A DNA stretch of 64,000 bases, taken from a virus. Taxonomy: Duplodnaviria > Caudoviricetes. The DNA is taken from the IMG/VR virus record IMGVR_UViG_2974729571_000001, positions 29,788-93,787 of that record; one strand, 5' to 3'. Shown one piece after another: positions 20,656 to 63,458 of the stretch. The notes beneath the pieces were generated by a model, which was given only the letters and a program-made list of their open reading frames with translations, did no database searches and was not told the origin of the DNA. Position 1 is the first letter of the stretch; every line of letters begins with the position of its first letter. A program made the translations under genes and the position numbers.

Positions 20656-23600
20656 ATGCCAAATATATTTGATGATATATCAGTAGAAAAAGCTCCACTA
20701 GACAGTGGGGCTAATTCTGTTAATATGGCTAAAGAAGCTCCTACTGTTACTAAATACAAACTTGATGTAGCTGCACAAGGCGACTTCATGTTTCGTAATC
20801 TTAGTGGTAAAGAAGTCTTTACTGGAACAGAGGAAGATTATCATTCTTTAGCTAAGTATGGTGCTGAACCTAATCGTTATCAAAGTAGAGAAGAATTAGA
20901 AACTCTTCGTGCTAAAAATCAATCAGCTTGGAAACAAGCAGGTAATGCTTTAGGTCAAACTATTGGAACAGTTATAGGAGATACTGTTGGTGGTATAGGT
21001 ATGTTAGTAGATTTAGCTACCGCTGGATTATGGGATGATAAACCGTTTAGTAATCCTATTACTAGAGCAGGTGATGCTATATCTGACTATGTTCGTGATG
21101 ATTTGTTTCCTATATATCGTGAGAATCCTGATAAAGCATTTGATATGAATGACTTTTCGGGTTGGTTCTTTAGTCAAGTTCCAAGTATTGCTAGTTTTTT
21201 ATCTTTAATGGTTCCGGGTGCTTTATTAACTAAAGGAGTTGGAGCTGTTGGTAAAGGTGTTGCAGCATTAGGACGTAGTAGTTCTAAAGTAAGTCGTGCA
21301 ATGAATTGGGCAAAGAAGGCTACTAAATTAGATAATGTATATCGTGCTAATAGATTAAAGATATTAGTTAATGACGGTATTACAGCTATTGGTATGCGTT
21401 TAGGTGAGAATTATCAAGAAGCTCGTGGTGTTGCAGAACAGATAGAAGGTGAAGCATTGTCTCTATTTACTGGAATGTCTGACGAAGAGTTTCAGAATTG
21501 GTTAGATAATAATCCCGATATTGCAAATGAGACTAAAGGTAGAACTAAAGAAGAAGCCGCTCTTATAGTTGCAGATAAGGCAGCTATGCGTAACTTTGGT
21601 TATAACGCAGGTAACGTATTCTTTGATTTCATGCAGTTACGTGCTGTTAATAAAGCAATAGGACAAGTCAATCGTGCTATTACTCCACGTATTCGTTATT
21701 CACAGAATCAAGCTCTTGATAGAATAGCTTCTACTGGAATTGAATCTACTAGTCAAACACTTGGACAGGCAGCTAAAGGAACTATTAAAGATTTCGCAGG
21801 AAAGATAAATAGACTTATTAATTCTAGTGAGATTCTTTTGTTATCTGAATTATCAGAAGGTATTGAAGAAGCAATAAACTACGTAGGTCAAGAAGAAGGT
21901 ACTTTATACGGTCGTTATTTATTAGGTCAAGCTGGACAATATAATGGTGCTGTTTCTATGGATAGAATAGAGAAGTACTTACAGAATCCTCAATTATATA
22001 ATGCTGCACTTTGGGGAGTTATTGGCGGTATTACTTTTGGCGGTACTATGTCAGCCATTAATAATCGTAAAGGTGGTAATGTAGAAGAGGAACAACGTAT
22101 TGCTGAAATAAATGGTCGTGAACAGGTATTCAATGAGTATGCTCGTCAGATGCAGATTATTGATAATGGTGAAAATCCATATCAAATAGAACGTGATGCT
22201 AATGGTAATCCTATTACTTATTTAGATGACGGTACTGTTAGTCAAGACCCAACAGTTGGTACTACTCGTTATAGTAAGGTTAGTCCCGAAGAACAAGAAG
22301 ATTTACGTGCTGCTGCTAAAGAGAAGTTTACTACTACTCTTACTTTAAATGCTATTCGTTCAGGTAATTATGAACTACTTGAAGATTATATTGAAGACCC
22401 TAGACTAAAGAAGAAACTAGTTGATTCAGGTCTTGTAGATGATGCTGAATACGATAGAGATACGCAAGAATTAAAGAAAACTATGCGTACTGTTCTTGAT
22501 AGATACGTTAATTATTCTACTGCATTACGAAGTGCTAATATTGATGATGCTTTACTAGATGTTGCTATATCAGAGAATATAGTTAATGCACAAGAAGCAG
22601 ACTTATTAAATAAACGAGTAGAAAGACTTAATACTATTCAATCTCAATTAGAGAATAGCATACCGGCTATTAATGAAGTTCTTGACCCAATGGCTAAGAA
22701 TCGTATGCAATTAGGTATATTAGAACAGTATCGTAGAGAAGTAATGTCTGCTTATAATAGTCTAAAGAATAGTAAAAATCCTTTAGATAGAGCACAAGCT
22801 AGTCAATATCTTGATTTATCACGAGTAATCGAATCTAAGGTTACAGACTTACGAAGAGGTTTAAATCCTATGGAAAGTTTGTTCCTAGATAATGTTCGTA
22901 GTGTAGAGAATATTGCATTAGGAATAGAAGGTAGCGAAGAACAGAATAACTTAATCAAGAAACAAATAGAAGAACTTGATGAAAATGATGTGGCTCTGTT
23001 TAAACAGGCAGGTAAAGACTTTAATCTTGGTACTCTTGCTAAACAAGTTCGTAATATTAATTCAGAGTATATGGATAATATGGGACAGATACTTCTTGAT
23101 GAAATTCGTAGAGATAATTATCGTTCTCGTATTATTACTACTAATGAACAAGCTAAGGAATTTGAAGATACTTGTAAGAAAGAATTAGAAGATGCAGCTA
23201 AGAATCTAGTTAAGTCAGCAAAGAAGAATCTTAATGACTTTGTTAATATGGCTAATGAAGAAGAGCTTGGTAATCTTGAGAAAGCACTAGATAATGCGTT
23301 TACTGATGAAGAAAGTCAGAATACTAGCAATAAGAGTTTATCTAATGCTGTTAGTATTTTAACTAATTCAGAGAATGGTAAGAAAGATATAGCGTCTTTA
23401 AGAGAAGCTATTACTAAGAGAAGAAATAGTCTTGCTGCACAAAGTCAGGCACAGCAACAGAATGGGAATAATCAGCGACAAGACTCCTCTACGGGGGAAG
23501 CGAGGAGCGAAGCGACGAGGCAAGAAGAACCAGAGGTTAAGCCTATTCCAAAACCTAAACCAAAGACTGCTAAAGAGAAGAAGTTAAAAGAGACATTAGA

Positions 23601-26600
23601 TAAAGTAGTATCTAAAGCTAATTCAGGTGTTGTAAATAAAGCTAATATTAATAACTTAGAATTTACAATAGTAAAACCTTTTGCTAGTTTAGGAGATGTT
23701 AGTAGAAAACCAGTTAAAGTAAGTGCAATAGACGTACGTGTTAGTAAATTTGGCAATGTTAGTATTGATGGAATGGATACCAAAGGTAATATCATTGCTG
23801 ATGTTACTATTGATGAACTAAATGCCGCTATTGCTATCGGAGATATTACTTATGTAGATACTAGTAAATCTGATGAATCTACTTCTTCCGATACTAACGT
23901 TCTTGAATCATCTATATCTGATAATGACTTAGAAGGTCAACGCCAACGTATAGAAGAGATAAATTTAATTATAGATTTATATAATCAAATACAAGGTAAT
24001 CAGATAGAAGGTAAGACATTTACTAGTCTTAATGATATGATGATTTATCTACAACAGTTAAATCCTAGAGCTGTTAGTTTGTATAATGATATTAAGATTC
24101 TAGCTAATCGTCAAATAGTAGACGGTAAGATAGTTAATGTTGATGAAGAGATTAAAACTCCTTCTGATATTATACAAGAAGCAAGTAAGACTTTAGATAA
24201 AGCTGTTGCAGAAGATAAACAGAATAGTAAAGACAATGGTTATTTCTTTAATCTAGTTAATCTAAATGATAGTAAGGTTTATTCTCGTATTGGTCAATTA
24301 AAAACTAATGATACAGTAAGCGTAGAACTAGATGAAAATGATAATCTTATTGTTAAGTCTCGTGGAATTAAGATAGGTGAGTTTCCTAAGATTGGTTATA
24401 ATAATGGTAATGTTGAAGTTATGAATCAAGGTTGGAGATATACTGTTAGAAACGATAGTATAGATTTCATAACTCAACTTCAATCTATTATTGCTAGTGA
24501 AGAACCTAGTGCTAAAGAATTTGTACAATTACTTAATAATATACGTCGTCTATATCGTGTTCGTAATAATCCCGAAGTTGAGGGAACATTCGGACATCAA
24601 CTTAATGCTTTACAAGAGAATGAACATTGGAAGAACTTAACTAGTTTGTTTGGCGATACTCAAACTAATCTATTAGATAGGATTAAACATCTTAATAATA
24701 TTATATTCTTTAATAATGCTCTTAATGTTAATCAGTCTAACTTTAGTACCATTGTTAATGAATCATTAACTAATTGGATGAATAAACTCAAGAAGTCTTA
24801 TACTGACATTAATAACTTAAAGTCCTCTATTAGTAATACTAAGTCTAAAAAGAAACGTCTAGTTGTTGGTCGTACAAGTTCAGGTAGTGTTATTTATGCT
24901 AGAGATAAACAAGGTAATCCTATATATCGTAAGTTTGGAGACGTAGCTACTAGTGAATCTACTGACGGTTATCGTCTAGTAGTAGGAGTTGACGGAGGAG
25001 TTGCCGATATTAAATCTAATAGTATTATTGCTGCTAGTCGTATTCCTATAGGTGTAGTTGGTATGACTATTAAAGATTCAGAAGGCAGACTTATTGCTGT
25101 TACTAGTCGTGAAAATACTATGAGTAATAGTGAAACAGAAGCTACTGAATATACTAAAAGGTTTAACGAAGGATTAGATAAATTATTCCATTCATTAGTA
25201 GATGCTACTCTACAAGGAAATACTGATTTACATCAACAACTATTAGATGAAATATCTAAATACGTAGGTAAGCAAAAAGCTCTTTATGGTTATGAAGTTG
25301 TAGGTCGTGCATTTCGTCCTCTTAATAAGATTGGAGCTACTATTTACTTTAACGTTGCTGATAGAAACGTAGCATTTGCTATACCTGGCGAAACTAAACC
25401 TAGAAGACTTATGGCTCGTATGCCTAATGGTTTTGTTCCTACTAATAATCATGGTAACTTTAGCACTATGATGGAAGGAGTATATGCTACATTAACTCGT
25501 AATGTTATTAATTCAGCTATTCGTGGTGAATCTAATTTATTTAGAATGGTAGACGGTAAACTACAAGCTAAGATACCTAATATACTTCAAGATGAATGGA
25601 TGGACACAGGTTACAGTAGTTATGAAGAGTTCGTAGCTAAAGACGGAGTATTAGTTACAGACTTAGGTAATGTTACTGACAGTAAAGGTAATATTATTAG
25701 TAACTTTAATTATGTAGGAGATGTATATAATCGTAATATTACTCTTATGAATCCTAGTCGTAGTACTGGTCGTACTAACGCGGCTGACGCCGCTGTTTCC
25801 CCCATAGAGGGGCAACAAGTTGTATCTCCTATTGCTACACCTGACCCACTTGCTAGTCAAGATAGTACTTCTCAAGTAGGTACTCTTATGGAAGTTGCGC
25901 AAGCTAATACTAGTAATCCTAATCTATTATCTGTTGTTTCGGCATTAGAATCTGCTGGCATTGCTCTTAATCCTGATATTGAAATAGTAGGTGAAAAAGG
26001 TAGATTTGCAGGAATAGTTGCTGGTGGTAATACTATTACTCTTAGTAATCGTTTTAATAGTCTTGCTCCTGAACGTAGAGTTCTTACTCTTATACATGAA
26101 GGTGTACATTATCTACTTAATGATGAACGTGCTAATATAGAACAATCATTCGGAGACTTATATGATAAGTTTGCTAACTTTATTAATCAAGATTCTCGTC
26201 TAGTAGATGAGTATGGAGATTTCTTAAATAGTAGTAAACCTAGAGCTGTTGCTATTGAAGAGTTTGTAGTCGAAGCTATTACTAATCGTACATTTGCTAG
26301 ATTACTAGCTAGAATTAAGTATGATTCTAATCCTACTACTGAATCAAATAACCTGTTTACTAAAATAGTAGATGCTTTAGTAGAATTAATAGGTAAGATA
26401 GGACAAATAGATAATACATTACTTGGAGAAGTTCGTAATCGTTTATCTACTATTGGATTAGAAACTAGTGATACAGCTAGTACTTCTACTGTTACTTATG
26501 ACGATACTTTTGATAGAGCAGAGGAAGATGTTAGCGTTCCTACTGATGATGTATTTGATATTCCTGATATAGACTTAGATTTAGATAGTAGTATAAGTGA

Positions 26601-26715
26601 TAACTACCGTCAAGTCGATAATTTCGATAGTCTGATTGAGGGATTGAATAATCGACAAAAGGCTATTGTGACGCATTTGTTTGACACTGGTGAGCTTAGT
26701 TTTGTATGTAGTTAA
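20656..26715 (+). CDS. Giant ejection protein with N-terminal TM segments, coiled coils and a C-terminal zincin metallopeptidase
   Basis: 2019 aa. TLIHEGVHYLL (HEXXH, 26095-26109) followed by EEFVVEA; hydrophobic Gly/Ala helices near the N-terminus. Confidence 0.75.
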   Translation: MPNIFDDISVEKAPLDSGANSVNMAKEAPTVTKYKLDVAAQGDFMFRNLSGKEVFTGTEEDYHSLAKYGAEPNRYQSREELETLRAKNQSAWKQAGNALGQTIGTVIGDTVGGIGMLVDLATAGLWDDKPFSNPITRAGDAISDYVRDDLFPIYRENPDKAFDMNDFSGWFFSQVPSIASFLSLMVPGALLTKGVGAVGKGVAALGRSSSKVSRAMNWAKKATKLDNVYRANRLKILVNDGITAIGMRLGENYQEARGVAEQIEGEALSLFTGMSDEEFQNWLDNNPDIANETKGRTKEEAALIVADKAAMRNFGYNAGNVFFDFMQLRAVNKAIGQVNRAITPRIRYSQNQALDRIASTGIESTSQTLGQAAKGTIKDFAGKINRLINSSEILLLSELSEGIEEAINYVGQEEGTLYGRYLLGQAGQYNGAVSMDRIEKYLQNPQLYNAALWGVIGGITFGGTMSAINNRKGGNVEEEQRIAEINGREQVFNEYARQMQIIDNGENPYQIERDANGNPITYLDDGTVSQDPTVGTTRYSKVSPEEQEDLRAAAKEKFTTTLTLNAIRSGNYELLEDYIEDPRLKKKLVDSGLVDDAEYDRDTQELKKTMRTVLDRYVNYSTALRSANIDDALLDVAISENIVNAQEADLLNKRVERLNTIQSQLENSIPAINEVLDPMAKNRMQLGILEQYRREVMSAYNSLKNSKNPLDRAQASQYLDLSRVIESKVTDLRRGLNPMESLFLDNVRSVENIALGIEGSEEQNNLIKKQIEELDENDVALFKQAGKDFNLGTLAKQVRNINSEYMDNMGQILLDEIRRDNYRSRIITTNEQAKEFEDTCKKELEDAAKNLVKSAKKNLNDFVNMANEEELGNLEKALDNAFTDEESQNTSNKSLSNAVSILTNSENGKKDIASLREAITKRRNSLAAQSQAQQQNGNNQRQDSSTGEARSEATRQEEPEVKPIPKPKPKTAKEKKLKETLDKVVSKANSGVVNKANINNLEFTIVKPFASLGDVSRKPVKVSAIDVRVSKFGNVSIDGMDTKGNIIADVTIDELNAAIAIGDITYVDTSKSDESTSSDTNVLESSISDNDLEGQRQRIEEINLIIDLYNQIQGNQIEGKTFTSLNDMMIYLQQLNPRAVSLYNDIKILANRQIVDGKIVNVDEEIKTPSDIIQEASKTLDKAVAEDKQNSKDNGYFFNLVNLNDSKVYSRIGQLKTNDTVSVELDENDNLIVKSRGIKIGEFPKIGYNNGNVEVMNQGWRYTVRNDSIDFITQLQSIIASEEPSAKEFVQLLNNIRRLYRVRNNPEVEGTFGHQLNALQENEHWKNLTSLFGDTQTNLLDRIKHLNNIIFFNNALNVNQSNFSTIVNESLTNWMNKLKKSYTDINNLKSSISNTKSKKKRLVVGRTSSGSVIYARDKQGNPIYRKFGDVATSESTDGYRLVVGVDGGVADIKSNSIIAASRIPIGVVGMTIKDSEGRLIAVTSRENTMSNSETEATEYTKRFNEGLDKLFHSLVDATLQGNTDLHQQLLDEISKYVGKQKALYGYEVVGRAFRPLNKIGATIYFNVADRNVAFAIPGETKPRRLMARMPNGFVPTNNHGNFSTMMEGVYATLTRNVINSAIRGESNLFRMVDGKLQAKIPNILQDEWMDTGYSSYEEFVAKDGVLVTDLGNVTDSKGNIISNFNYVGDVYNRNITLMNPSRSTGRTNAADAAVSPIEGQQVVSPIATPDPLASQDSTSQVGTLMEVAQANTSNPNLLSVVSALESAGIALNPDIEIVGEKGRFAGIVAGGNTITLSNRFNSLAPERRVLTLIHEGVHYLLNDERANIEQSFGDLYDKFANFINQDSRLVDEYGDFLNSSKPRAVAIEEFVVEAITNRTFARLLARIKYDSNPTTESNNLFTKIVDALVELIGKIGQIDNTLLGEVRNRLSTIGLETSDTASTSTVTYDDTFDRAEEDVSVPTDDVFDIPDIDLDLDSSISDNYRQVDNFDSLIEGLNNRQKAIVTHLFDTGELSFVCS

Positions 26716-26735
26716 GTAAGATAAGCCTAGAGACG

Positions 26736-26798
26736 AAAGTCCGGCAGAGAGCCTTAGAATGAGCCATTTTAAGCGCATCTGCCGGACTTTTATATTTT
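26736..26798 (+). terminator. 13-bp inverted repeat / probable terminator
   Basis: AAAGTCCGGCAGA (26736-48) and TCTGCCGGACTTT (26778-90), followed by TATATTTT. Confidence 0.55.
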
Positions 26799-26911
26799 CC
26801 TTATCTTACTATCACGACAGCATATAAAATGCGAAATTCGGCAGGAATTTGCGGTCTACGGGCATCCGTCCGCCTTCGTAACGTGCGGTTTTCGTCCGTC
26901 TAATAAATCTA

Positions 26912-26942
26912 TTTGATAGTATTGATAATAATGTTATCTTTG
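26912..26942 (+). promoter_or_regulatory. Consensus Bacteroidota promoter upstream of the virion RNAP gene
   Basis: TTTG-N19-TATCTTTG, a full -33/-7 match 38 nt before the ATG. Confidence 0.8.
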
Positions 26943-26980
26943 GTAATGTTAGTAATTACTTAATTAATAATATAAAGTAT

Positions 26981-40070: not shown

Positions 40071-40268
40071 AGTATTATTGTTTGAAATACTATTATCAAT
40101 ATTAACTTCACTATATCCCGCTAGCCTAACGGCTAGCTTTCTTCCCCCATAAAGGAGCAGGTTTGCTGATAATTCCACTCCTTTATGGGGGATTTAGCGA
40201 GCTTGCGAGCGTAGGCAAGTCCAGCAATATAATTATCCCTAGTACGTTGGTTTTATCCAAGTACAGTT

Positions 40269-48858: not shown

Positions 48859-49375
48859 TTGCTGTAAGTCTTACAATTATATACTTTTTAGGTTTACCTA
48901 TTCTCGCATGATAGAACTTGAAACACTTTAGATAATCAGTACTTTCAGTCCACTGTATAAAGTTTCCTTTAGATACAGATGTATTAGTTTCATAATTAAA
49001 CTCTCTTGGAATCTTATGACTACTATACATGTCTTTATCTAAGTAATTCTTAATGATAGCTAAGTGTTCAGGATTATCAAACTCAAAGTTACCATAAATT
49101 TTTATCTTAGAAAAGTCAATTGGTGTACCGTCAGAAAGAGAGAGACGAATTAAAATATCAGGATTATCAACCATTTGTTGTCTGACATCATCAAGATACT
49201 TCTCTTCTTCATCTGTTAAAGGATACATAAAATAATAGCTATAAACATTTCCGCTATTACCGAAACTGTTTATAGCTATTCTCTTTAATGGAGCAAATGA
49301 ATTAAAATCAATTACTCTACGTTCTTCTTGTGCCTTTGGAAATGACACATATTCTTCTTCTCTACTCATATTCAA
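48830..49375 (-). CDS. Hypothetical protein
   Basis: 181-aa ORF in the replication operon. Confidence 0.7.
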   Translation of the reverse strand: MNMSREEEYVSFPKAQEERRVIDFNSFAPLKRIAINSFGNSGNVYSYYFMYPLTDEEEKYLDDVRQQMVDNPDILIRLSLSDGTPIDFSKIKIYGNFEFDNPEHLAIIKNYLDKDMYSSHKIPREFNYETNTSVSKGNFIQWTESTDYLKCFKFYHARIGKPKKYIIVRLTANEVKQCKSV

Positions 49376-50495
49376 ATAATGATTCAGTTTGTTCTATAAA
49401 CGAATTAATAGTTTCTCTTGAATACATACTAACTAACTCCGAGAAATCTTTAGCACCATAACTTCTTGGAATAACAATAGGTATAATACCATATTCTTTT
49501 CGTAACCTACGAGCACCACGTACACCTGTCAGGTCATTGTCAAAAAAAGAAATAAGTATTCCATTGTCGTTTAGCTTAGATTGAAGCCAGTTATATTCGT
49601 AATCTTTGAGAACATAACTCTCCGAAGTAACATTAATTACTCCTATTTGAGACTCTGACAAATTCCCCCGTAAAGGATAGGAATGTAACCAGTAACTTAA
49701 TGCTAGATTGTCCTTATATGATTTAGTAATAATAATTATATCATACTTAGGTTTATCAAGATTAAGTATTCCAACAAGACCATTATGATTAGTTATAAAC
49801 TTGATTTCTCCCTTACTTCTATCTCGAAGAGGAAAATAACATTCGATATTATAAATACCGTTACTATCAAGTCCAGTAACATAAGCATAACAAGGGTCTG
49901 ATTCCTTATATGTATATTTAGGACTAGGTTGACAATACCTATTAATATACATTTGGTCAACAGGATAGACAAAATGAGTATTAAGCCAATGTAGACTAAC
50001 TCCCCATTTTCCCCAAATATTCTTATCGTTATTAGTCCAAGTTCTAGTAGCTATTTCAATAATTGGTTTACTAGCTTTGATTTTAGATATTACTTGTTTA
50101 AGTAAGATTTCATTCTCTTCATCTACTTCTCCGTCATATATTATCTTACGGAAAGTATAAGCTATATGCTTTAATATATAATAGAAATCTGCTTTATTAG
50201 CAACATTTATATGACGACCAGTTTTAAAACTTAGTACATAAGCTACTAGGTCGAAACAATCACCAAAGAAAGAGCCATTAAAATCACGAGCTTTTAGCTT
50301 GTGTTTATTATTGAAAGCAAAACCAAATGTTGGATGATTATCAACACGTAAAGGAGAACATATAAGAACATTGTTTTCAACACAATCATTAACTACTGAT
50401 ACAGGTATACCCATATACTTAGCCATAATCATTTCCTGACTAACCTTAGATAATATAAACTCTTTTGTTAAGTCTTGTCTTATTCCTCTACGCAT
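49362..50495 (-). CDS. DNA primase (DnaG/TOPRIM type)
   Basis: SPLR-D-HPTF N-terminal domain, GDCFD, ITKSYKD, and TOPRIM FDNDLTG...KDFSE. Confidence 0.85.
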   Translation of the reverse strand: MRRGIRQDLTKEFILSKVSQEMIMAKYMGIPVSVVNDCVENNVLICSPLRVDNHPTFGFAFNNKHKLKARDFNGSFFGDCFDLVAYVLSFKTGRHINVANKADFYYILKHIAYTFRKIIYDGEVDEENEILLKQVISKIKASKPIIEIATRTWTNNDKNIWGKWGVSLHWLNTHFVYPVDQMYINRYCQPSPKYTYKESDPCYAYVTGLDSNGIYNIECYFPLRDRSKGEIKFITNHNGLVGILNLDKPKYDIIIITKSYKDNLALSYWLHSYPLRGNLSESQIGVINVTSESYVLKDYEYNWLQSKLNDNGILISFFDNDLTGVRGARRLRKEYGIIPIVIPRSYGAKDFSELVSMYSRETINSFIEQTESLFEYE

Positions 50496-52536: not shown

Positions 52537-52658
52537 AATTGTAAAATTTTAAATGATTAATAATTAATTATTAAAAGCGAGCATATAGCTCATTGTTAGC
52601 GTAAAGTTTTGTCTTATTTCGTATCTATTGATTAGCAATAGTTAGACTTCTATTACTA

Positions 52659-53573
52659 TCAAATCTCTACAATATCAGCATCATCAATACTCATATTGTT
52701 CACTATCTTAGCTTCTGTTGTTTCCATACAACCAAGTATTACATCAGCCGCTATATCACGAGCTGCAAGCGTAAAAGCTCTATGACCGATAAGTGTTCTC
52801 ATATACTTAGTATAAGTATCTTTACTAGCAAGTCCGGCAGTTACAGCATCGCTATAACTAAAATGACCAATACTAGTAATAACTCTATTATCTACTATAC
52901 GAGTAAGTTTATATTCAGTAATATAATCACAAGGAACATTAGGTATTCGGAATATTGGAACTAATCCTTTCGCTGCAATATCTTTAGCTTGTTGTTGATT
53001 AACTGCAACACCGAATTTATTATTCAACTGATATTCCTTGTAGATTGTACCGTTATAATCTTGATAATTTCTAACTGGATAAATACCAATTTCGTCATTA
53101 TCAGAACTAGCATTAAATTCATCAGCTTCTCTCTTGCTTTTGAATCTCCTACAATAGTCAGGTATCTTACTATCTATATAAACATTATTACCGTCTGTAT
53201 ATTCATACAGAGCTATATAATCTTTTGTGCACTCCCATGTTATAGCTGCCTTCAATAATAATGCTTTGATTAAGTGAACGTCTAATGTAGTTTTACCATT
53301 AATAACTCCTAGATGTTCAATACAACTAGTAAACGGTAAACCTAACTCTTTAGCACGGCTATATATTGCAAGACCGTCTTGAATAGTCTTAATACCGCAC
53401 TTATCACTAGACATTACTGATTTCAGATACGACTCTAACTTACTCCTATCATCGGGATTGTAAATGTTTAGGGTATTAAGAGCAGAAGCCATAATCATAC
53501 TACTATTATTTGATTTTGCTTTTGGTTCTGTCTTAGCTAGAGTTCTTTCATTCTCTGTCTTTACTTCTTCCAT
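52659..53573 (-). CDS. RecT/Sak-like single-strand annealing protein
   Basis: ELGLP...I-H--VINGK and FSYSDAVTAGLASKDTY-KY-R-L---RA---AAR motifs. Confidence 0.7.
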   Translation of the reverse strand: MEEVKTENERTLAKTEPKAKSNNSSMIMASALNTLNIYNPDDRSKLESYLKSVMSSDKCGIKTIQDGLAIYSRAKELGLPFTSCIEHLGVINGKTTLDVHLIKALLLKAAITWECTKDYIALYEYTDGNNVYIDSKIPDYCRRFKSKREADEFNASSDNDEIGIYPVRNYQDYNGTIYKEYQLNNKFGVAVNQQQAKDIAAKGLVPIFRIPNVPCDYITEYKLTRIVDNRVITSIGHFSYSDAVTAGLASKDTYTKYMRTLIGHRAFTLAARDIAADVILGCMETTEAKIVNNMSIDDADIVEI

Positions 53574-53603
53574 TATTTCAAAGGTCGCTTATTGATTACT
53601 CTA

Positions 53604-53634
53604 CAAAGATACTAATTTCTTTGTTAACTCCAAA
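53604..53634 (-). promoter_or_regulatory. Consensus Bacteroidota promoter
   Basis: Minus strand TTTG-N19-TATCTTTG, 30 nt upstream of ATG 53573. Confidence 0.8.
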
Positions 53635-53646
53635 GACTAGCATCAA

Positions 53647-55122: not shown

Positions 55123-57310
55123 ATAAAGTATTTCTCATTCCATAGTATTTCTTAACTAAACGTTTACCTTTACCTTTATTATTACGACTTTGTTCTATTG
55201 GTTCTATAATAGCCATAGCTTCATTATAATAATATAAGTAATTAACATTTAATTCAGATATATCAGTATCATCAACAGTATTACATATAGAAACACGTTG
55301 ACCTGCACATAGAGAACTCTTTTTAACTTGTTCTTCATTATGCTCATTCCAGCCCATACTCTCGACTTTCATCAATGTTCCCCCCGTAGAGGAAATGTAA
55401 AACCTTGTATTCCTCTGTACCACATCTGTTCTTATCTTTCCGTCTACGACATGAGTAAACTCTAGTCTATACTTATGATTAACATTTTGAGTACGACAGA
55501 AATCAAGAATAGATTTAGCATTTCTAAGAGTTTCCATTACAGGAGTTCCATTAATAAAGTATTCAGTAACACATTTAGCTACAATAGGAGAATTATATCC
55601 TTTAGATAAATCCTCTAAGAACATCTTAGGATTCATTCTACCTTTGAACTTACTACTTCCACCACGTTTAACAGTAAGATAACTATTAACGCCTTCGGTT
55701 ACATACTTTGTATAATATGTAAATTCTAGCTCTAACCCTAGATGTTTCTCCCACCAATGACAAATATCATCAGCAGTTTGTTCTAATTCTCTAGGAACAA
55801 TAGTTACAATACCATCTGTATTAGCACTTATAACATGAATACCTGCAAGTTCAAGTTTCTCTATTAACATCAATAAAAATAACTGACCGTTAATAGTAAC
55901 TTGATACATTGCTTTCTTGTCACATAAGAAAGACTTTTCACTTCCCATTTTACCAAATATACCAGCATTTGCTACAATCTTTAGACAAGCAGCAGCAGTA
56001 GCATGTTTATCTCTCTCCATAACATCAAGAGATTTATCTTTGGCTAAATGTTTATGTTCTAGTCGTTCATCAACAATAGTATCAGCTATACGAAACCATG
56101 CTTTAGGAATAAGGTGTTTCTGACATACTTTAAGACTACGTATCATATTAGGATAATAACTTGCAACATCTCTGTCAACAATAATACTATCAGAATTTTC
56201 AACATATACGGCTGGAATCTCATTTGAATGTAGACCCCCAGTTGCGATGGTATAGGACGTGCCCATAAAGGTAAATTCTCGGTCAAATTCGCCCTTTTCT
56301 CCCTTCAAGGTAAGGGAACGTATGCCTGACAAAATATCGTTCAATTCAGGGGTCGAAAATGCGATTTTATCTGACAAGATTTCGGAAACCAAGATTTTCC
56401 TACGTATTGTCTTAGTATCAATAAAGGCTTTAGGATGTAGACCAGTGAACTTACTATATAGTTTAACAATAACTTTATCAGCTATTGTACTTCTACTAGC
56501 AGAATACACATCTACTTTATATTCCTCACTAATACGATACCTTAGAAGAACTTCTTCCTGATTCATCCTGATTAACTCGGCAACAATATATACATCATTG
56601 TCGTTATAATCAGCCATTTCATTAAGATATTCTTTAGGAATAAATCGCTCAAATACATTACGATAATGAATGTTAAGTTCTCTATCAGTCATTCCCTTTG
56701 CTTCGGGTAATCTCTCGTGATAATAATGTCTATCTAAATCACCAATAGGTGGCATAGTATACTCTTTTAGATTATACCATTTAATATTAATAGAAGTCTG
56801 TTTAAGACTTTTATGATAATGGTCTAACCTAAATATTTGGAATAAATCTAAATCTCTAAATGCAACGTTATTACGAAGTATAAGAGAAGTGAAGTTATCA
56901 GTCCAAAGAGTATCATTATTAGAACTACGAATAACTCTCTGTGATGTTTCATATAAGAATGTAATTAACTTACTAGGTTTATCAAATTGATTATAATACA
57001 TAAGTAATGCACTTAACATTAAGCGGTCGTACTTCCGATTATTATATCCGAAATAATCTGCTTTCTGTTGTAACCAATATAATAAACTGAATAAATCAGT
57101 ATCATCATCTTCATATAAAACAAAACGTTTCTTAGGTATTGTTTCTAAACGTTGTTTTATCTCTGCAATAGTAAGTTTATCAACAAGAGGAATAGCTTTT
57201 CCATCATTATCGACACAATCACTAAATATTTTGAGATAACTACGTAAATCAACAAATACTACCGAGAAGTAATTTCTAGTTACTTCGACATCATAACACA
57301 TAGAACTCAT
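55115..57310 (-). CDS. polB: Family B DNA polymerase with 3'-5' exonuclease
   Basis: Exonuclease motifs YDVE, GYNNRKYD, YNDNDV; polymerase motifs DVASYYPN, KIVANAGIFG, ANTDG. Confidence 0.9.
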   Translation of the reverse strand: MSSMCYDVEVTRNYFSVVFVDLRSYLKIFSDCVDNDGKAIPLVDKLTIAEIKQRLETIPKKRFVLYEDDDTDLFSLLYWLQQKADYFGYNNRKYDRLMLSALLMYYNQFDKPSKLITFLYETSQRVIRSSNNDTLWTDNFTSLILRNNVAFRDLDLFQIFRLDHYHKSLKQTSINIKWYNLKEYTMPPIGDLDRHYYHERLPEAKGMTDRELNIHYRNVFERFIPKEYLNEMADYNDNDVYIVAELIRMNQEEVLLRYRISEEYKVDVYSASRSTIADKVIVKLYSKFTGLHPKAFIDTKTIRRKILVSEILSDKIAFSTPELNDILSGIRSLTLKGEKGEFDREFTFMGTSYTIATGGLHSNEIPAVYVENSDSIIVDRDVASYYPNMIRSLKVCQKHLIPKAWFRIADTIVDERLEHKHLAKDKSLDVMERDKHATAAACLKIVANAGIFGKMGSEKSFLCDKKAMYQVTINGQLFLLMLIEKLELAGIHVISANTDGIVTIVPRELEQTADDICHWWEKHLGLELEFTYYTKYVTEGVNSYLTVKRGGSSKFKGRMNPKMFLEDLSKGYNSPIVAKCVTEYFINGTPVMETLRNAKSILDFCRTQNVNHKYRLEFTHVVDGKIRTDVVQRNTRFYISSTGGTLMKVESMGWNEHNEEQVKKSSLCAGQRVSICNTVDDTDISELNVNYLYYYNEAMAIIEPIEQSRNNKGKGKRLVKKYYGMRNTLFD

Positions 57311-57323
57311 ATACTTATACTTT

Positions 57324-58781
57324 TTATTTACCGTAACACAAATATAAACGATTTTTGCATCTACTACAAGCTGTATATAATCTACGAAGAGTATTATCTA
57401 TATCTCCCCAAGGATTACCAGTACGCATATCAAATACAATATCATTTACATCTATATATACATCGGCATAAGTACTACCCTGTGCTTTATGACTAGTAAG
57501 AGCAAAACCGTAATCTAAATCACGACTAAACTTTATTTTACCAGTAGACCTATCTAATAAGTTGGCTAGTAACAAGTTTCTCTCTCTAAATTCATAGTAT
57601 TCCTTCCAACGCTTACTTCTATTATATTTCTCTGCATTAATTGCATTTTGAATATAAGTTTCACCTAACTTATAATAAAGCATAACATTATTAAAATTAG
57701 AATGGTCTACTACAAATAAAGGTTTAGTTCTATTGCCACCATTAACTTGAATAAACGTAACGTTAAATCCAAAGATTTCATCTTTATTAGTAAAATTCTT
57801 AATATCATGTATTATATAATCTTCAGAATTTACAATAATAGTATCTTTAAACTCATCAACAAAAGTATTATAAGACATTACTAAATCATTACGAGTTAGA
57901 ATTGCTTTATCACTACCTTCAATGATATTTTTACGAATGAATTTATTCCATTCAGATACAGACTTATTAGTATAAGTTATTAGTCGACAAGTATCAACAT
58001 CTCTAGTAAACTCTTCGTTATAAAATCCGTTTATTACAAGAGATTGAAACTCGTATGCACCACAAGTATAATATCCTTTAGTTTGAGTTGAATCAAAAGC
58101 ATATCTATTTTTATTGATATATTCTAGGAATTTCCAACTCCTATTATCAATATCTTTTCTTAGTATCTTTAATAACTCACTAACAGGATTATCTTCTTCT
58201 TGTCTAACAATCTGTCTAAGAGTATAAAACTTAACATTATCAAAACAACGTGAACGAGACTCTTTAACAGGTGGTAATTGGTAATTATCACCCATATAAA
58301 TAAGCATACATTCAAACTGTTCACATTCTCTTTCTATAAGAGTTTTAAGATTAATACCAATCATAGACGCTTCATCAACAATATATAACTTATATTGTTT
58401 AATCTTCTTTTCAGCCAAAGGGTCAAAAGGAGGATTATTAACATCAAAATCAGTAACATCGGTATTAAGTCTCAAACCTAAATCACTAGCCACAGTAGAC
58501 GTAGAATATCCAGTAGATGCACGAAGTACACGAGCTGCCTTATGAGTAGGAGCTGCAAGACCAACAACAGATTTAGATAAACCACATCGTCTAATTACTT
58601 CACGTATCATATAAGTTTTACCCGTACCAGCAGCACCAATAAGTGCACGCTTATAATCACCTGCAACATAACCTCTTTCTATAAAGGCAACAAGATTTTC
58701 ATAAGCAATCTTTTGGTCACGAGTAAAACTACTCAAGACTTTATCGTCTTTCTTAGCATCATCAAACTTTTCAAAATTCAT
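57324..58781 (-). CDS. SF1B Dda/RecD-like DNA helicase
   Basis: GAAGTGKT, APTHKAA, IVDEASM, GDNYQLPPV, L-QIVRQ, TSHKAQGST, LYTACSR. Confidence 0.9.
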   Translation of the reverse strand: MNFEKFDDAKKDDKVLSSFTRDQKIAYENLVAFIERGYVAGDYKRALIGAAGTGKTYMIREVIRRCGLSKSVVGLAAPTHKAARVLRASTGYSTSTVASDLGLRLNTDVTDFDVNNPPFDPLAEKKIKQYKLYIVDEASMIGINLKTLIERECEQFECMLIYMGDNYQLPPVKESRSRCFDNVKFYTLRQIVRQEEDNPVSELLKILRKDIDNRSWKFLEYINKNRYAFDSTQTKGYYTCGAYEFQSLVINGFYNEEFTRDVDTCRLITYTNKSVSEWNKFIRKNIIEGSDKAILTRNDLVMSYNTFVDEFKDTIIVNSEDYIIHDIKNFTNKDEIFGFNVTFIQVNGGNRTKPLFVVDHSNFNNVMLYYKLGETYIQNAINAEKYNRSKRWKEYYEFRERNLLLANLLDRSTGKIKFSRDLDYGFALTSHKAQGSTYADVYIDVNDIVFDMRTGNPWGDIDNTLRRLYTACSRCKNRLYLCYGK

Positions 58782-59136
58782 TGCATTTTAGTAAGAATCT
58801 ATTAATATTATCACGACATTTAAGTATATAACCTTTAACAGACAATCCTATCTTAAATGGAATATAACAACTAGGCATAACACAATAAGCATCAGTACAT
58901 CTAACAATCTTAGTAGGTCTACCATGACTATCTAGTGCACGAGTATATATTGTTTTAAAACCTTTACATGAGTACGAACGTTCAGATAACATAATAAGTT
59001 CATCACTATCTTTAGGTTTAAACTTATACATGTTATCATGTAGAACAATAGTTCCAGTAACAATCTGCATTATTACTTTCTCACGAGGAATCTTCTTTTC
59101 CTCATTTACCGCTGATAGTTTGAAACTTAATCCCAC
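58771..59136 (-). CDS. Hypothetical protein
   Basis: 121-aa ORF overlapping the helicase start. Confidence 0.65.
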   Translation of the reverse strand: MGLSFKLSAVNEEKKIPREKVIMQIVTGTIVLHDNMYKFKPKDSDELIMLSERSYSCKGFKTIYTRALDSHGRPTKIVRCTDAYCVMPSCYIPFKIGLSVKGYILKCRDNINRFLLKCNEF

Positions 59137-59140
59137 AATA

Positions 59141-59392
59141 TTAAGGTTTGACTATTTGGTTAACACTATACTGTACGCAACACGTTCCTTTACGGGGGAA
59201 TATCTTATATTTATCAGTATTCATAATTCTAGGTAATGGAGTAATTTCACAACATCTATCACTATGAACATCTACGATAATACAATGATAAGCATTAACA
59301 CATAAATCATGAGATATAACAGCTTTAAGTCCTTCAAAATATACATCAAAAGTACTATCAGGATTAACACATTGTTTTAAATCTACAACCAT
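59141..59392 (-). CDS. Small Cys-containing hypothetical protein
   Basis: Start MVVDLKQ at 59392. Confidence 0.6.
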   Translation of the reverse strand: MVVDLKQCVNPDSTFDVYFEGLKAVISHDLCVNAYHCIIVDVHSDRCCEITPLPRIMNTDKYKIFPRKGTCCVQYSVNQIVKP

Positions 59393-59393
59393 A

Positions 59394-59705
59394 TTAATTA
59401 GCTTTAGTTTTATATATTTCGTATAACTTACTAAATTCATCAGAGGGCATACAAACAATAGGAACATTAGTATGCATTTGTTCTTTAGGAACAATACAGT
59501 TTCTTGCAGTAACTATTCTATCATCTTCAACAAACATTGTTTCAAGAACTAGACAATTACCAGCATTTAATATTTCCTTACACTTAGGACAGATATAAAT
59601 AGTATCCGTACCAAACACAAGAAGCTCATCGCCACAAACTAGACATTTGCCAGTCGTGACAATGAGCTTACCATTATCTTGTTTAAACTCATTTAGCTTG
59701 GACAT
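59394..59705 (-). CDS. Zinc-finger protein
   Basis: CLVCG...CPKC. Start MSKLNEF at 59705. Confidence 0.65.
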   Translation of the reverse strand: MSKLNEFKQDNGKLIVTTGKCLVCGDELLVFGTDTIYICPKCKEILNAGNCLVLETMFVEDDRIVTARNCIVPKEQMHTNVPIVCMPSDEFSKLYEIYKTKAN

Positions 59706-59835
59706 AACTAGGAATACGTCTCCTTTCTTCCATTCTAATGAGTTTAATACTAGTACTTTCAAGTACATTAAGAGTAAAAGCTACTAATTTGTAACTTCTC
59801 TCACTTTTTCCAAGTTTAATTTTCTTCTTAATCAT
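59689..59835 (-). CDS. 48-aa basic peptide (MIKKKIKLGKSERSYKLVAF...)
   Basis: Translated by hand; fills the gap. Confidence 0.45.
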   Translation of the reverse strand: MIKKKIKLGKSERSYKLVAFTLNVLESTSIKLIRMEERRRIPSYVQAK

Positions 59836-59857
59836 TACGTTTAGTATTTAATTATTA

Positions 59858-60178
59858 TTATTTAATAGGAGCATCTGACCGCTCCGCTTCGCTCCGCTTA
59901 TTCCCCCGTAGAGGAGTTGTGAATTGTTTAACCTTTTGCTTAATTTCATCTATAATAGCTTTATTCTTATCAATACTATCGTTACTATAAAGATTATAAC
60001 TATGTGTTTCATCAATATTTCTATTAATATCAAGAACAAATAGATACATACTAATATAAGAAGTATTGTTAAGATTACAATTAGTATAAAGGTCACTAGA
60101 GAGTTTAGTACTATACAACAGACTAAGCTGTATTTTCTGTAACTCTCTAAACAATTTAGTAAATTCTTTCTTATTCAT
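59858..60178 (-). CDS. Hypothetical protein
   Basis: 106 aa. The C-terminal tail (PLRGNKRSEAERS) is dictated by the overlapping DNA motif and hairpin. Confidence 0.6.
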   Translation of the reverse strand: MNKKEFTKLFRELQKIQLSLLYSTKLSSDLYTNCNLNNTSYISMYLFVLDINRNIDETHSYNLYSNDSIDKNKAIIDEIKQKVKQFTTPLRGNKRSEAERSDAPIK

Positions 60179-60210
60179 GTCAGTATATTAGTTTTAATTA
60201 ATAATCATAG

Positions 60211-60235
60211 AAAAAGGAGCAGACGCTTCTGCTCC
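60211..60235 (-). terminator. Intrinsic terminator
   Basis: Minus strand GGAGCAGA-AGCG-UCUGCUCC followed by U5. Confidence 0.8.
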
Positions 60236-60268
60236 AAGCTAAATAATTAATATTTATAAAAGTCCTAA

Positions 60269-60342
60269 TTCTATCTCACGACAGTAATTTAAATTAGGGG
60301 TAAAAATTAGATTAAGTTCTGTTCTATCTCACGACAGTAATT
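60269..60342 (-). repeat. Two 21-bp direct repeats, each a CUGUC-GUGA-GAUAG RNA hairpin
   Basis: TTCTATCTCACGACAGTAATT at 60269-60289 and 60322-60342. Confidence 0.85.
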
Positions 60343-60377
60343 AATAAACTTGTATTAAACACAAATACTATGTATTT

Positions 60378-60462
60378 ATAGCTGACATTTTACGAAGAGG
60401 ATTTCCCTTACTTCAACCATTTGGTCAATGTTTCAACTTAGATTAGTCATCATCAGAGCTAT
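60378..60462 (-). ncRNA. Type I hammerhead ribozyme
   Basis: Minus strand AUAGCU-CUGAUGA-U-GACU(AAUCUA)AGUU-GAAA-CAUU[insert]AAUG-UC^AGCUAU. Full catalytic core, stems I-III and a GUC cleavage triplet. Confidence 0.75.
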
Positions 60463-60575
60463 CAAGAAAAGAAATAGTGCGATTCTCACGAACAGCACTA
60501 TTATAATTCCATAAAACCAATAAATACTATTCTCACGAATAATAGATATTACAATACGACAAATTTAATTTTAGT

Positions 60576-61148
60576 TTAACTAAAACAGATAAAACAAAAT
60601 TGGCAATTACTTATTATATATATCTTTGTATAATCTACACAATAAAAATCAGGACAATCTTTAAGAAACGATTCACATATTCTACGAGCTTCACCTTTAC
60701 TATTACCAGAGTAAAGAGTTTTAGCATTACCATTAAAAGACTTTCTTAGCTTATCATTCTTGTCTAGGAATACAAGATGATTTTCAGAACAATAGAATAC
60801 AGAATAAATCGGAGCTTTACTAGCTTCATATTTAGCAAGAAGTTTATCATAAGATTCTTTAGCACTGTCTCTCATATCACTAATATATTTGATATAAGAA
60901 AGCATAATACTATCCCATTGTTCAACAGCTTTAATCTTATCTTCAATAGAATACTTACCATCAAGAATATCTTCAAGAAGATTATTCAATCCTTTAACAT
61001 TAAGATTTTCTAAATCTTCAAGAATAGCTTTATTAAATTCTCCTTTAATAAAAGCCTTACGATAATCTTCTTTAATAGAATCAATAAGATTAACATCAGA
61101 ACCACTAGCTAAAGCACAAGCTAAAATAGCAGATATAATATCTTTCAT
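60576..61148 (-). CDS. Hypothetical protein
   Basis: 190-aa ORF whose 3' UTR contains the ribozyme cluster. Confidence 0.65.
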   Translation of the reverse strand: MKDIISAILACALASGSDVNLIDSIKEDYRKAFIKGEFNKAILEDLENLNVKGLNNLLEDILDGKYSIEDKIKAVEQWDSIMLSYIKYISDMRDSAKESYDKLLAKYEASKAPIYSVFYCSENHLVFLDKNDKLRKSFNGNAKTLYSGNSKGEARRICESFLKDCPDFYCVDYTKIYIISNCQFCFICFS

Positions 61149-61174
61149 TATAATAAATTTTTAAATTAGACAAT

Positions 61175-61228
61175 AAAAAACTCTACTAATATTACTCTAG
61201 TCTCACGACCTGAATAATCTTAATAGAG
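61175..61228 (-). terminator. Long imperfect terminator with GUGA loop
   Basis: Minus strand CUCUAUUAAGAUUAUUCAGGUC-GUGA-GACUAGAGUAAUAUUAGUAGAG followed by U6. Confidence 0.7.
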
Positions 61229-61287
61229 TGAACCGACATTTATTTAACCCTTTGTCAGATATTAATTAAATAGAGTACGTATCGGCA

Positions 61288-61674
61288 TTATACTAAACGT
61301 AAAATAATAACTGCAACAGCTCCTAAAGCAATAAGAGAAGCAATAACAAAACCAACAGTATTATACTGTCTTTTAGCTTTAAGCTCTTCATAGGCTTTAT
61401 TAGCTCTGTCTAATTCAATCTTGAGTTGTTCAACAGAATTACTAAGAGCTTTATTATTAGCTTCCAATTGATTCTTTGCAGAATTTAATTTAGAAGACAT
61501 ATTACGAAGTTCTTTATTTTCATGACAAACCCCTTTATACATAGTCTTATAACCATCAAGATTAGCATTAGACTTTTCATTAGATTTACGTAGACGAATA
61601 ACTTCTTTCTTTAATTCGTTAACTGTTGGACGTTTCTTACTAAGAACATCGACATCTTTCTTTAATTCGTTCAT
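61288..61674 (-). CDS. Coiled-coil protein with C-terminal membrane anchor
   Basis: Heptad pattern, then VGFVIASLIALGAVAVIILRLV. Confidence 0.7.
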   Translation of the reverse strand: MNELKKDVDVLSKKRPTVNELKKEVIRLRKSNEKSNANLDGYKTMYKGVCHENKELRNMSSKLNSAKNQLEANNKALSNSVEQLKIELDRANKAYEELKAKRQYNTVGFVIASLIALGAVAVIILRLV

Positions 61675-61690
61675 AACTATTAGTATTTAA

Positions 61691-61843
61691 TTAATCTTCA
61701 ATATGAGTTATATCTAAGTCAAGGTCTATATTATCCTCGCTTAGAGTATTTCCAGTATTCCAATTATTAGCCATTTCACAGTCGAGATAGTCTATATCAG
61801 CTACCAAACCACAAATAGGAAATTCTACACCTTCGTCATACAT
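61691..61843 (-). CDS. 50-aa highly acidic peptide
   Basis: MYDEGVEFPICGLVADIDYLDCEMANNWNTGNTLSEDNIDLDLDITHIED; no Lys or Arg. Confidence 0.55.
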   Translation of the reverse strand: MYDEGVEFPICGLVADIDYLDCEMANNWNTGNTLSEDNIDLDLDITHIED

Positions 61844-61915
61844 AATCTTAAATTTTGTAATACGGATGCAAGTATAGCAATAAATAATGGAAATACCAAA
61901 CAATAATGATAATAT

Positions 61916-62860
61916 TTAATGAGTATTGCTATTAGCTATATCATCTTTGAAGCTATCCATTATATCACAAACTGATATATTAGAACAATTCAATAGAGTA
62001 TTAATAGTATTAGCAGTACGTTGGTCTTTACAAGTAATATTAAAATTATCATAATTGAACTTACGAACAACATTAGGACTAGCTTTATGAATATAATAAA
62101 TATCCATATCAGAGACATTGAAGTCTACAATATCATTTTCATATTTATCTAATACGTCTTTAAGAGATATGTAATATCTACAATCACCAATAGCTCTAGC
62201 AGCACTAGCAGTATCTTTAAATCGAATAAAGAAACCGGAATCAATAGAATTACGAATAGTTAGCCATTCAAAATCTAGCTCGTATTCTTTATATGGTTGA
62301 ACATAAAGTCTCAAATCATAAAGAGCTTTTTTAAAAACTCTTAAAGCATGAGTTCTTTCAGCTAGTAGAGAAGTCTTTTCTTCTAATCGTTTATTGAGCT
62401 TATCAATATCTTCTTTAGAACGGCTTAATTGAGTATTGAGTTCCTCATTAACTTTAACAGTAGCATTAAGAGTATCTTCGATATTCTCTAACTTAATAAG
62501 ACTATTAGTTTTCTCTTCAATAATCTTATTTAATTGAGCAATACGTTCTCCACGAAGATTAAGTTCATTATTAAGACCATTAATTTGATTACGTAATTCA
62601 GTAATTCTATTATCACTATTAACAAGTTGATTTTCAAGAAATTTAACTCGTTCAGTTAACTCATCATTATTAGATTTAAGAGATTCAATCTCATCACAAT
62701 CTTTAATAGTATAAGTATTGCCTAAATCAGCAAGTTCAAAAATAGAACCAAGTGATTGAAAATCTAAATCAATAATACAACCACTTTCTTCAACAATAAC
62801 AACTCCATTAGTATGAGACACAAGAGTTAGATGCTTTTTATCATTTACAACAGCTTTCAT
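61916..62860 (-). CDS. Long coiled-coil protein
   Basis: 314 aa with a central heptad region of about 130 aa. Confidence 0.75.
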   Translation of the reverse strand: MKAVVNDKKHLTLVSHTNGVVIVEESGCIIDLDFQSLGSIFELADLGNTYTIKDCDEIESLKSNNDELTERVKFLENQLVNSDNRITELRNQINGLNNELNLRGERIAQLNKIIEEKTNSLIKLENIEDTLNATVKVNEELNTQLSRSKEDIDKLNKRLEEKTSLLAERTHALRVFKKALYDLRLYVQPYKEYELDFEWLTIRNSIDSGFFIRFKDTASAARAIGDCRYYISLKDVLDKYENDIVDFNVSDMDIYYIHKASPNVVRKFNYDNFNITCKDQRTANTINTLLNCSNISVCDIMDSFKDDIANSNTH

Positions 62861-62912
62861 AAATACATGTATTAATTATTAAGAATTTAATTTTAAAAGT
62901 AATGAATCTATA

Positions 62913-63098
62913 TCATAATAATATAGTATGATATAGTAAACGAATAAAGCTAATAACTATTATATAAGTTATTATAGTTTGAACTAAAGAACGGACGATA
63001 AAAACCTTCTTATAAGAAAGGTAATTAAACATCAAATACAACAAACATATAACTATTCCAATTAAAGATAGAAATATGTGGAATTGATAAGTAGTCAT
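62913..63098 (-). CDS. Small two-TM membrane protein
   Basis: 61 aa with two hydrophobic helices. Confidence 0.5.
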   Translation of the reverse strand: MTTYQFHIFLSLIGIVICLLYLMFNYLSYKKVFIVRSLVQTIITYIIVISFIRLLYHTILL

Positions 63099-63274
63099 AT
63101 ACTAGAAAGATTAGATATTGCAACACAGATAATAAGTATAGCCATAACAGCTATAATAGATATTATCATAGACAAAGTACTAGACCTCCTATCAATGAGA
63201 TAGTTATTCAGTAAGAGAGTAGTAATAACAAATAATAATACAGTTATTATAAAGAAATAAATATCGGTATTCAT
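63095..63274 (-). CDS. Small two-TM membrane protein
   Basis: Start MNTDIYFF at 63274; ATGA overlap with the next gene. Confidence 0.5.
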   Translation of the reverse strand: MNTDIYFFIITVLLFVITTLLLNNYLIDRRSSTLSMIISIIAVMAILIICVAISNLSSI

Positions 63275-63458
63275 AATGATATAAGTTAAATGGTAAATAA
63301 AAGGTGAAGATGTAACAACAATCACGCTCCTTTATGGGGGAGAAAAGCGAGCTTGCGAGCGGGACTAGACCAGCTAAGTAACAAACCAAATAGTAATCTA
63401 GATACTAATAGTAATACATATCTATACATATTTATACATATTACTATACTTATTCTAT

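Follow-up and report, generated by a model that had tools for sequence, protein, structure and literature searches.

Mini-hairpins of the GCGNAGC/GCGNNAGC type occur at the G4, St-1, and alpha3 complementary-strand origins, at RSF1010 ssiA, and in the promoter of the N4 virion RNA polymerase (RNAP); they have a melting temperature of about 76 °C as DNA versus about 39 °C as RNA, are bound poorly by single-stranded DNA-binding protein (SSB), and resist nucleases (PMC13037366, a 2026 review by Hirao and colleagues). At G4-type origins they sit beside the polymerase start on coated single-stranded DNA (ssDNA) (PMC13037366). We studied a 64,000-nt stretch of DNA (the window; bases 29788–93787 of the 93,787-bp phage record IMGVR_UViG_2974729571_000001) with 91% identity over 6 kb to Bacteroides phage crAss002 (Jahgtovirus secundus, Intestiviridae), in which hairpins resembling these lie directly 3′ of some copies of a 15-nt word, CYCCTYTAYGGGGGA, that ends in the run GGGGGA. 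The likeness to G4, St-1, alpha3, and RSF1010 ssiA lies in the rule of C-G-closed GNA/GNNA heptamers or octamers, in folding on one strand only, and in being poor substrates for SSB, and this phage likewise encodes a primase and an SSB. What differs is the setting: a 94-kb double-stranded DNA phage with seven sites on both strands, some of them intragenic and always beside the 15-nt G-run word, and with tandem G·A stems, which are not described for G4-type origins. A reading of the window made from its letters alone (the sequence-only reading) had named both N4 and G4 as precedents. The N4 half of that background is correct in that N4 virion RNAP promoters use GCGGAGC with GGA/GAA loops, whereas the sequence at the G4 origin is GCGAAAGC, not GCGAAGC, and primase has not been demonstrated to recognize it directly.

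The window holds 23 copies of the word at two or fewer mismatches, versus 0.1 expected, and the whole genome 34 at three or fewer. All six hairpins that the sequence-only reading had listed in the window read exactly as written, and each lies 1 to 5 nt 3′ of the G-run of a zero-mismatch copy, on the same strand, in agreement with the limit of about 5 nt given there. On the plus strand, the copy at 23484–23498, in sense orientation inside the open reading frame (ORF) 20656–26715, is followed at 23501–23519 by a fold-back with a GCGAAGC core (23507–23513) and two tandem G·A steps, which extends to 23499–23521 in a divergent clade of relatives. The minus-strand copy at 25798–25812, antisense to the same ORF, carries a 5-bp Watson–Crick hairpin (25780–25793) with a GTCA (GNNA) loop on the motif strand. 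Where the two gene blocks of the phage converge, a pair of inverted, outward-facing copies (40143–40157, minus; 40178–40192, plus) is separated by a 20-nt spacer (40158–40177) that varies among relatives; a 7-bp hairpin with a GTTA loop (40120–40137, minus) forms the left flank of this symmetric element, and a GCGAGC-TT-GCGAGC fold-back of four Watson–Crick pairs plus tandem G·A (40197–40210, plus) lies on the other side. The same fold-back recurs at 63347–63360 (plus) after the intergenic plus-strand copy at 63327–63341, such that one 14-mer is found at two loci. The remaining element (59881–59897, minus) consists of three overlapping GCGNAGC heptamers with GGA, GAA, and GGA loops, readable as one GGA/GGA fold-back or as two tandem mini-hairpins, and belongs to the copy at 59902–59916 (minus), which is sense-oriented near the 3′ end of ORF 59858–60178. 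As had been noted, three of the six are intragenic (two in ORF 20656–26715 and one in ORF 59858–60178).

Outside the window, a seventh hairpin of the GCGGAGC-GAA-GCGGAGC kind seen at 59881–59897 follows the plus-strand copy at genome position 6909 (heptamers at genome 6926–6942), which brings the hairpin-bearing copies to seven of about 34, and a weak 3-bp GNNA mini-hairpin lies 3′ of the genome copy at 4903. Across the crAss002 genus there are seven GC-rich hairpin sites and one to three weaker ones, all 1 to 6 nt 3′ of the G-run and on its strand. Read on the motif strand, loops of 4 nt are all GNNA and loops of 3 nt are all GNA, and both plain Watson–Crick hairpins (25780 and 40120) carry their GNNA loops on the G-run strand. 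Of note, crAss002 itself has two further motif copies followed by AT-rich hairpins of Watson–Crick and G·T pairs: one at L001:44340–44385 (8-bp stem, CTTA loop), whose motif copy is lost in the genome of the window, and one at L001:10167–10215 (about 8 bp, AGAAG loop).

The association between hairpins and motif is not due to chance. A fold-back score that allows Watson–Crick, G·T, and tandem G·A pairs selected 6 of the 23 window copies against a control rate of 5% (P = 8e-4), and 79 of 299 copies in ten genomes of the genus where 15 were expected. Of the genome's 62 GC-rich islands, six start no more than 6 nt from the 3′ end of a motif copy (P = 5e-9). Hairpins with a C-G-closed GNA or GNNA loop are present on the motif strand at seven motif 3′ flanks versus 0.47 expected (P = 6e-7), with none on the opposite strand of those flanks and no hairpin excess at the motif 5′ flanks. 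Genome-wide, all four GCGGAGC heptamers and three of the four GCGAAGC heptamers are adjacent to the motif. These numbers bear on the simplest alternative, that the hairpins are a coincidence or a by-product of coding, for example of Ala/Glu/Arg-rich linkers that give GC-rich runs. Three elements are indeed coding, and the one at 25780 encodes an Ala-rich stretch in which diversity is not exceptionally low; but the enrichments (P values of 6e-7 to 5e-9), the non-coding or gene-end position of four elements, the one-sided and one-stranded placement, and the use of GCG/GCC codons that are unusual in a genome of 32% G+C make this account very hard to credit.

Conservation in relatives bears on what is being maintained. 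The seven hairpins occupy identical positions in the lattice of motif copies in ten whole genomes of the genus, and each element is found in 35 to 46 further IMG/VR relatives. The element at genome 6909 has A-T as its outermost pair in 15 sequences and G-C in 30, and no sequence shows an intermediate; further in, the GGA/GGA step can be replaced by a G-C pair plus tandem G·A, or by GGA/GTA. The arms of its major allele have ceased to be direct repeats but still pair. The outer pair of the 23501 element is G-C in the divergent clade (12 sequences) and C-G elsewhere (34), with one T·G, and in that clade the next pair becomes A-T or G·T. The 40120 element has two alleles (17 and 20 sequences), in which a central TA/AT alternates with tandem GA/AG and a GTTA loop with GATA. 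At 25780 the loop is GTCA or GTTA, and the stem changes solely from C to T, giving G·T on the motif strand. The first heptamer at 59881 is GCG-N-AGC with N being G, A, or T only; this N-only variation favors two tandem GCGNAGC units, while the compensated outer pair at genome 6909 favors one long stem for this type of element. Among 70 copies of the 40197 and 63347 elements from relatives, the stem never changes and the loop is either TT or TTT; this type of stem is kept even where the neighboring protein is at 44 to 60% identity.

Across all relatives' sequences no Watson–Crick pair is broken: every change in such a pair is either compensated (A-T to G-C, C-G to G-C, TA/AT to GA/AG) or yields G·T on the motif strand, and loop changes are confined to N positions or loop length. 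The presence of hairpin-preserving changes in relatives had been set beforehand as a point on which the sequence-only reading could fail, and such changes were found, in fold-backs that are strand-specific. The substitution pattern indicates that selection maintains the ability to fold on the G-run strand, not the sequence. Because this ability is shared without shared sequence, the pattern argues against direct-repeat protein sites, that is, against double-stranded sites in which the arms are GCGAGC-like half-sites, or in which a cruciform is bound, with no single-strand step. In favor of duplex recognition, several elements can also be read as direct repeats, with periods of 8, 10, and 12, and both arms of the 40120 element changed together. 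Against this, the arm spacing varies (loops of TT/TTT, GAA, or 4 nt), the 25780 element is not a direct repeat, the arms of the 6909 major allele are unlike but still pair, and what the sites have in common is folding rather than sequence; we regard duplex protein sites as highly unlikely.

The same fixity of position weighs on the proposal that these are selfish or neutral GC-rich palindromes, comparable to yeast mitochondrial GC clusters, that insert beside the G-run with no signal function. Confinement to one genus and the 14-mer shared by two loci would suit such elements, as would two further observations. A tandem duplication of about 35 to 78 nt of the motif unit orthologous to window 59902 is present in the relatives L112 (3738–3850) and in L115 and L116 (6457–6530), with a hairpin after both copies in L112 and after the second copy only in L115 and L116. 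Many relatives' alignments stop at window 63397–63416, about 40 to 55 nt past the hairpin at 63347–63360, beyond which the relatives split into two sequence types, marking a mosaic (recombination) boundary; our search for module boundaries at hairpins gave this one, near 63400, only. On the other hand, about 45 relatives hold the seven sites at fixed positions, with none left empty and none added; the hairpins, of at least four unrelated sequences, are always on the 3′ side with a G-first loop on the motif strand; and the compensatory changes imply selection on folding, so that an origin as inert or selfish insertions appears quite unlikely. Repetitive extragenic palindromes and bacterial interspersed mosaic elements (REP/BIME) offer a related comparison: the likeness to them and to the mitochondrial GC clusters lies in dispersed, short, GC-rich, imperfect palindromes in an AT-rich genome, read as single-strand hairpins by their own enzymes, and BIME units alternate in orientation. 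Unlike them, the crAss002 elements lie in frame inside essential genes, at fixed positions and always on one side of a conserved word, and no RAYT or Y1 transposase is annotated in this phage.

The form of the hairpins points to DNA rather than RNA. RNA does not favor loops of 2 to 3 nt, nor GNNA loops whose third position is a pyrimidine. By their GNA/GNNA loops and N-position variation, the hairpins appear to follow the DNA mini-hairpin rule GCGNAGC/GCGNNAGC and not the RNA rule: the exact form (GCGAAGC/GCGGAGC) is present at 23507–23513, 59881–59897, and genome 6926–6942, and a relaxed form (C-GNNA-G with other outer pairs) at 25780–25793 and 40120–40137, while 40197–40210 and 63347–63360, with TT loops, fall outside the rule. 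An alternative is that the transcribed motif and hairpin act as RNA, as a terminator, a 3′-end protector, or a processing site. Favoring such a role, the motif as RNA folds to a 5-bp, G·U-containing stem, and sense-oriented hairpin copies are located at gene or operon ends (genome 4903, 6909, and 89689, and after a small plus-strand ORF in crAss002). In addition, 40120–40137 read on the plus strand, at the end of the late block, has the GC-rich stem and following T-rich run of an intrinsic terminator, and it is the only element with the GC-rich RNA stem plus U-tract that defines this class. However, four of the six hairpins lack a Watson–Crick RNA stem, the 2- to 3-nt and GNNA loops are poor RNA loops and the RNA form is far less stable, the motif strand has no U-tract, and Rfam, searched over the whole window at gathering thresholds, returned no family. 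The element at 25780 is antisense, and both it and 23501 are in mid-gene. With respect to genes, three of the seven hairpin copies are clearly sense, one is clearly antisense, one is ambiguous, and two lie past both operon ends; any sense or antisense bias among them is not significant and is partly ambiguous, and this mixed orientation argues against a purely RNA role. We consider an RNA-level element unlikely. Separately, a canonical intrinsic-terminator shape (10-bp GC-rich inverted arms followed by a T-run) is present at 26739–26787 between the two giant genes, with no relation to the motif.

The word beside which the hairpins lie is itself under selection as DNA, because its copies are both intergenic and intragenic and, when intragenic, occupy three sense and two antisense reading frames. 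In 28 of 34 cases the neighboring copy lies on the other strand (permutation P = 3e-4), and spacing on each strand is regular, with coefficients of variation of the gaps of 0.36 and 0.49 versus 0.92 under random placement. Variation at core positions 1–4 is almost entirely C versus T, as pairing with the same-strand G-run would allow. We found local dialects of the motif in Rudgehvirus jaberico, cr8_1, ctcc615, and two IMG/VR genomes with 47% identity in the RNAP C-terminus, and some positions within the giant genes are common to different genera. The word is thus an alternating signal of the Intestiviridae: a G-run word in about 20 to 35 evenly spaced copies, in all frames and on both strands, with positions shared between genera. 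Among the six lineages examined, mini-hairpins accompany this word in the crAss002 genus only. In place of the hairpin, the other dialects have a longer conserved 3′ box. All hairpins of the phage studied here begin with AGC, and the other dialects examined have a conserved AGC or GCTAG box a few nucleotides 3′ of the G-run.

The claim that the motif is read as ssDNA gains support from the strand-specific fold-backs, the hairpin-preserving substitutions, and the DNA-rule loops. At the hairpin sites the G-run strand would be single-stranded, for example behind a helicase, in a bubble, or by extrusion from supercoiled DNA; a hairpin that excludes SSB and resists nucleases would keep the adjoining word exposed to its reader and would thereby mark strong sites. 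The likeliest reader would be the phage replication machinery (primase with SSB), in which case the hairpin sites would serve as single-strand initiation signals of the G4 or ssi type. Either a promoter or a priming role is plausible; since primase, SSB, and helicases are all encoded by the phage itself, and a kilobase-spaced lattice on both strands suits priming, we tentatively favor a replication role of the G4- or ssi-type priming kind. The symmetric element at 40120–40210, where the hairpins are on the outer, template-3′ sides of the two outward-facing copies, has the geometry that a bidirectional start needs, although it could equally be a terminus or a terminator. Overall, the best explanation available to us is that the hairpin is an accessory fold by which strong sites of single-strand initiation, most likely of priming, are marked; the non-random, strand-specific placement of the hairpins speaks for it, though we give it somewhat less than an even chance.

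Several results weigh against this explanation. In five other Intestiviridae genomes, from at least four other genera, the motif is not flanked by such hairpins: none of 26 copies has one in Rudgehvirus, none of 29 in cr8_1, and none of 19 in ctcc615, and in the two distant IMG/VR genomes one or two of about 20 copies have one, which is the chance expectation. The orthologous antisense copy in Rudgehvirus, 903 nt from the end of the same giant gene, likewise has no hairpin; the proteins are locally too divergent to judge whether the coding hairpins are insertions relative to Rudgehvirus. Nearest-neighbor DNA and RNA folding predicts the two Watson–Crick hairpins only (z = −4.4, that of 25780–25793, and −2.3), and the four G·A hairpins score z ≥ 0, such that their stability rests on the published behavior of sheared G·A pairs, for which the ViennaRNA DNA parameters have no model. 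The covariation amounts to about three to six independent events among close relatives, mostly from one metagenome project, and nucleotide diversity at the coding hairpins is just modestly under the gene average in 43 relatives. Finally, the sites have no consistent relation to predicted fork direction: an origin placed in the divergent region fits three or four of the seven sites, as does one placed at the convergent junction, and the replichore models were not significant. Since the hairpin is limited to the crAss002 genus, it would be a lineage-specific accessory that elaborates the 3′ half of the signal, probably gained in that lineage and not part of the ancestral core. The hairpin copies may form a strong subclass, as the sequence-only reading had it, in the crAss002 lineage only. 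It is possible, if doubtful, that the family-wide crAss signal is an ssDNA initiation signal, used by a phage primase or an ssDNA-dependent virion RNAP, and that the crAss002 genus has reinforced a subset of its copies with G4/N4-type mini-hairpins.

A second kind of initiation has to be weighed here, in which the virion RNAP starts at hairpin copies extruded from supercoiled DNA, as in N4. The GGA/GAA triloop heptamers are identical to the N4 promoter mini-hairpin, both systems have GCGGAGC/GCGAAGC-type triloop hairpins on one strand and a packaged polymerase preferring single-stranded templates, and phi14:2 gp66, the virion RNAP of a crAss-like phage, transcribes ssDNA but not double-stranded DNA, with its early promoters unknown. 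N4 promoters have a stem of 5 to 7 bp and a purine-centered 3-nt loop on the template strand; here, three elements have GAA/GGA triloops, but with only two flanking Watson–Crick pairs before the G·A steps. In N4, however, three promoters precede the early genes, with the hairpin on the template strand, whereas the crAss002 sites are scattered over the two strands: they fall within late genes, at the 3′ ends of genes, and beyond the two operon ends. Were the hairpin strand the template here, the transcripts would be mostly antisense. Moreover, the N4 enzyme is T7-like, and that of crAss phages is a two-barrel polymerase (the phi14:2 homolog); phi14:2 early transcripts have no common upstream motif; and the hairpins are absent in other genera. 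An N4-like early promoter is therefore a poor fit to the sites, and N4-type promoters, which fit worse than a priming role, seem improbable to us.

The sites could alternatively be marks for site-specific nicking or cleavage of one strand, as interruptions of the T5/phiKMV type or by an HUH-type enzyme that recognizes word and hairpin together, with the hairpin protecting or positioning the end. In arrangement, a hairpin beside a conserved word of its own strand recalls the substrates of HUH enzymes and relaxases, mini-hairpins are nuclease-resistant, and the crAss002 annotation includes a ligase and HNH endonucleases. But no HUH enzyme is annotated, although no search aimed at one was made; nicks in virion DNA of crAss phages are unreported in the literature searched; and the tight inverted pairs would yield double-strand breaks. 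We judge nicking marks to be an unlikely function, and return to single-strand initiation as the preferred account. The single-strand DNA hairpin signal is a known type of element, while the word it adjoins appears undescribed: a literature search for the motif sequence returned nothing relevant, the crAss002 paper does not mention it, and an exact-match scan of 185,000 bacterial genomes gave single chance matches only and is uninformative on a host role. New here are the mini-hairpin subclass, the first feature to indicate how the crAss-family word is presented, and its substitution pattern. The hairpins resemble structures used on ssDNA by primases and by the N4 virion polymerase, and may bear on the choice of start sites by crAss virion polymerases or primases; if the family-wide word is indeed an ssDNA initiation signal, the seven sites would give a first handle on what reads this signal, which the most abundant phages of the human gut carry.

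The genes around the sites fall into two blocks. The plus-strand block (1–39622) encodes virion proteins and giant proteins, which are annotated as RNAP catalytic subunits in crAss002, and the minus-strand block (40680–62860) encodes replication genes. A PHROGs search gave names for the primase, helicase, and polymerase only, all in the minus-strand block (DNA primase at 49365–50495, phrog_12622, E = 5e-76; a Dda-like helicase; and a DNA polymerase), a Pfam search of six neighboring proteins gave no match, and SSB is present, together with the ligase and HNH endonucleases, in the crAss002 annotation. The maximum of the cumulative GC skew and the convergence point of the two blocks are about 200 nt apart. 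At the skew minimum, outside the window, a divergent intergenic region (genome 200–730; L299) has GC-rich blocks and short direct repeats (a 9-mer ending in TTATCAG, three times, and the 10-mer GCCGGATAGC, twice) and is a candidate origin or regulatory region.

Some further features of the motif were observed in passing. At window 17922–17953, the 3′ arm of a 7-bp GC-rich hairpin (17922–17939, GTTG loop) overlaps a degenerate plus-strand copy that has lost the G-run and kept the GTTTACA-like box; this copy fills one of the few gaps in strand alternation, between the minus-strand copies at 15747 and 20449, and crAss002 has an intact plus-strand copy elsewhere in the same gene. A second tight inverted pair is located at 1658/1694, and its plus-strand copy (window 1694–1711) ends exactly at the ATG of ORF 1709–2029. 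Similarly, many copies in the distant genomes G001 and G002 directly precede an ATG, most of them intragenic.

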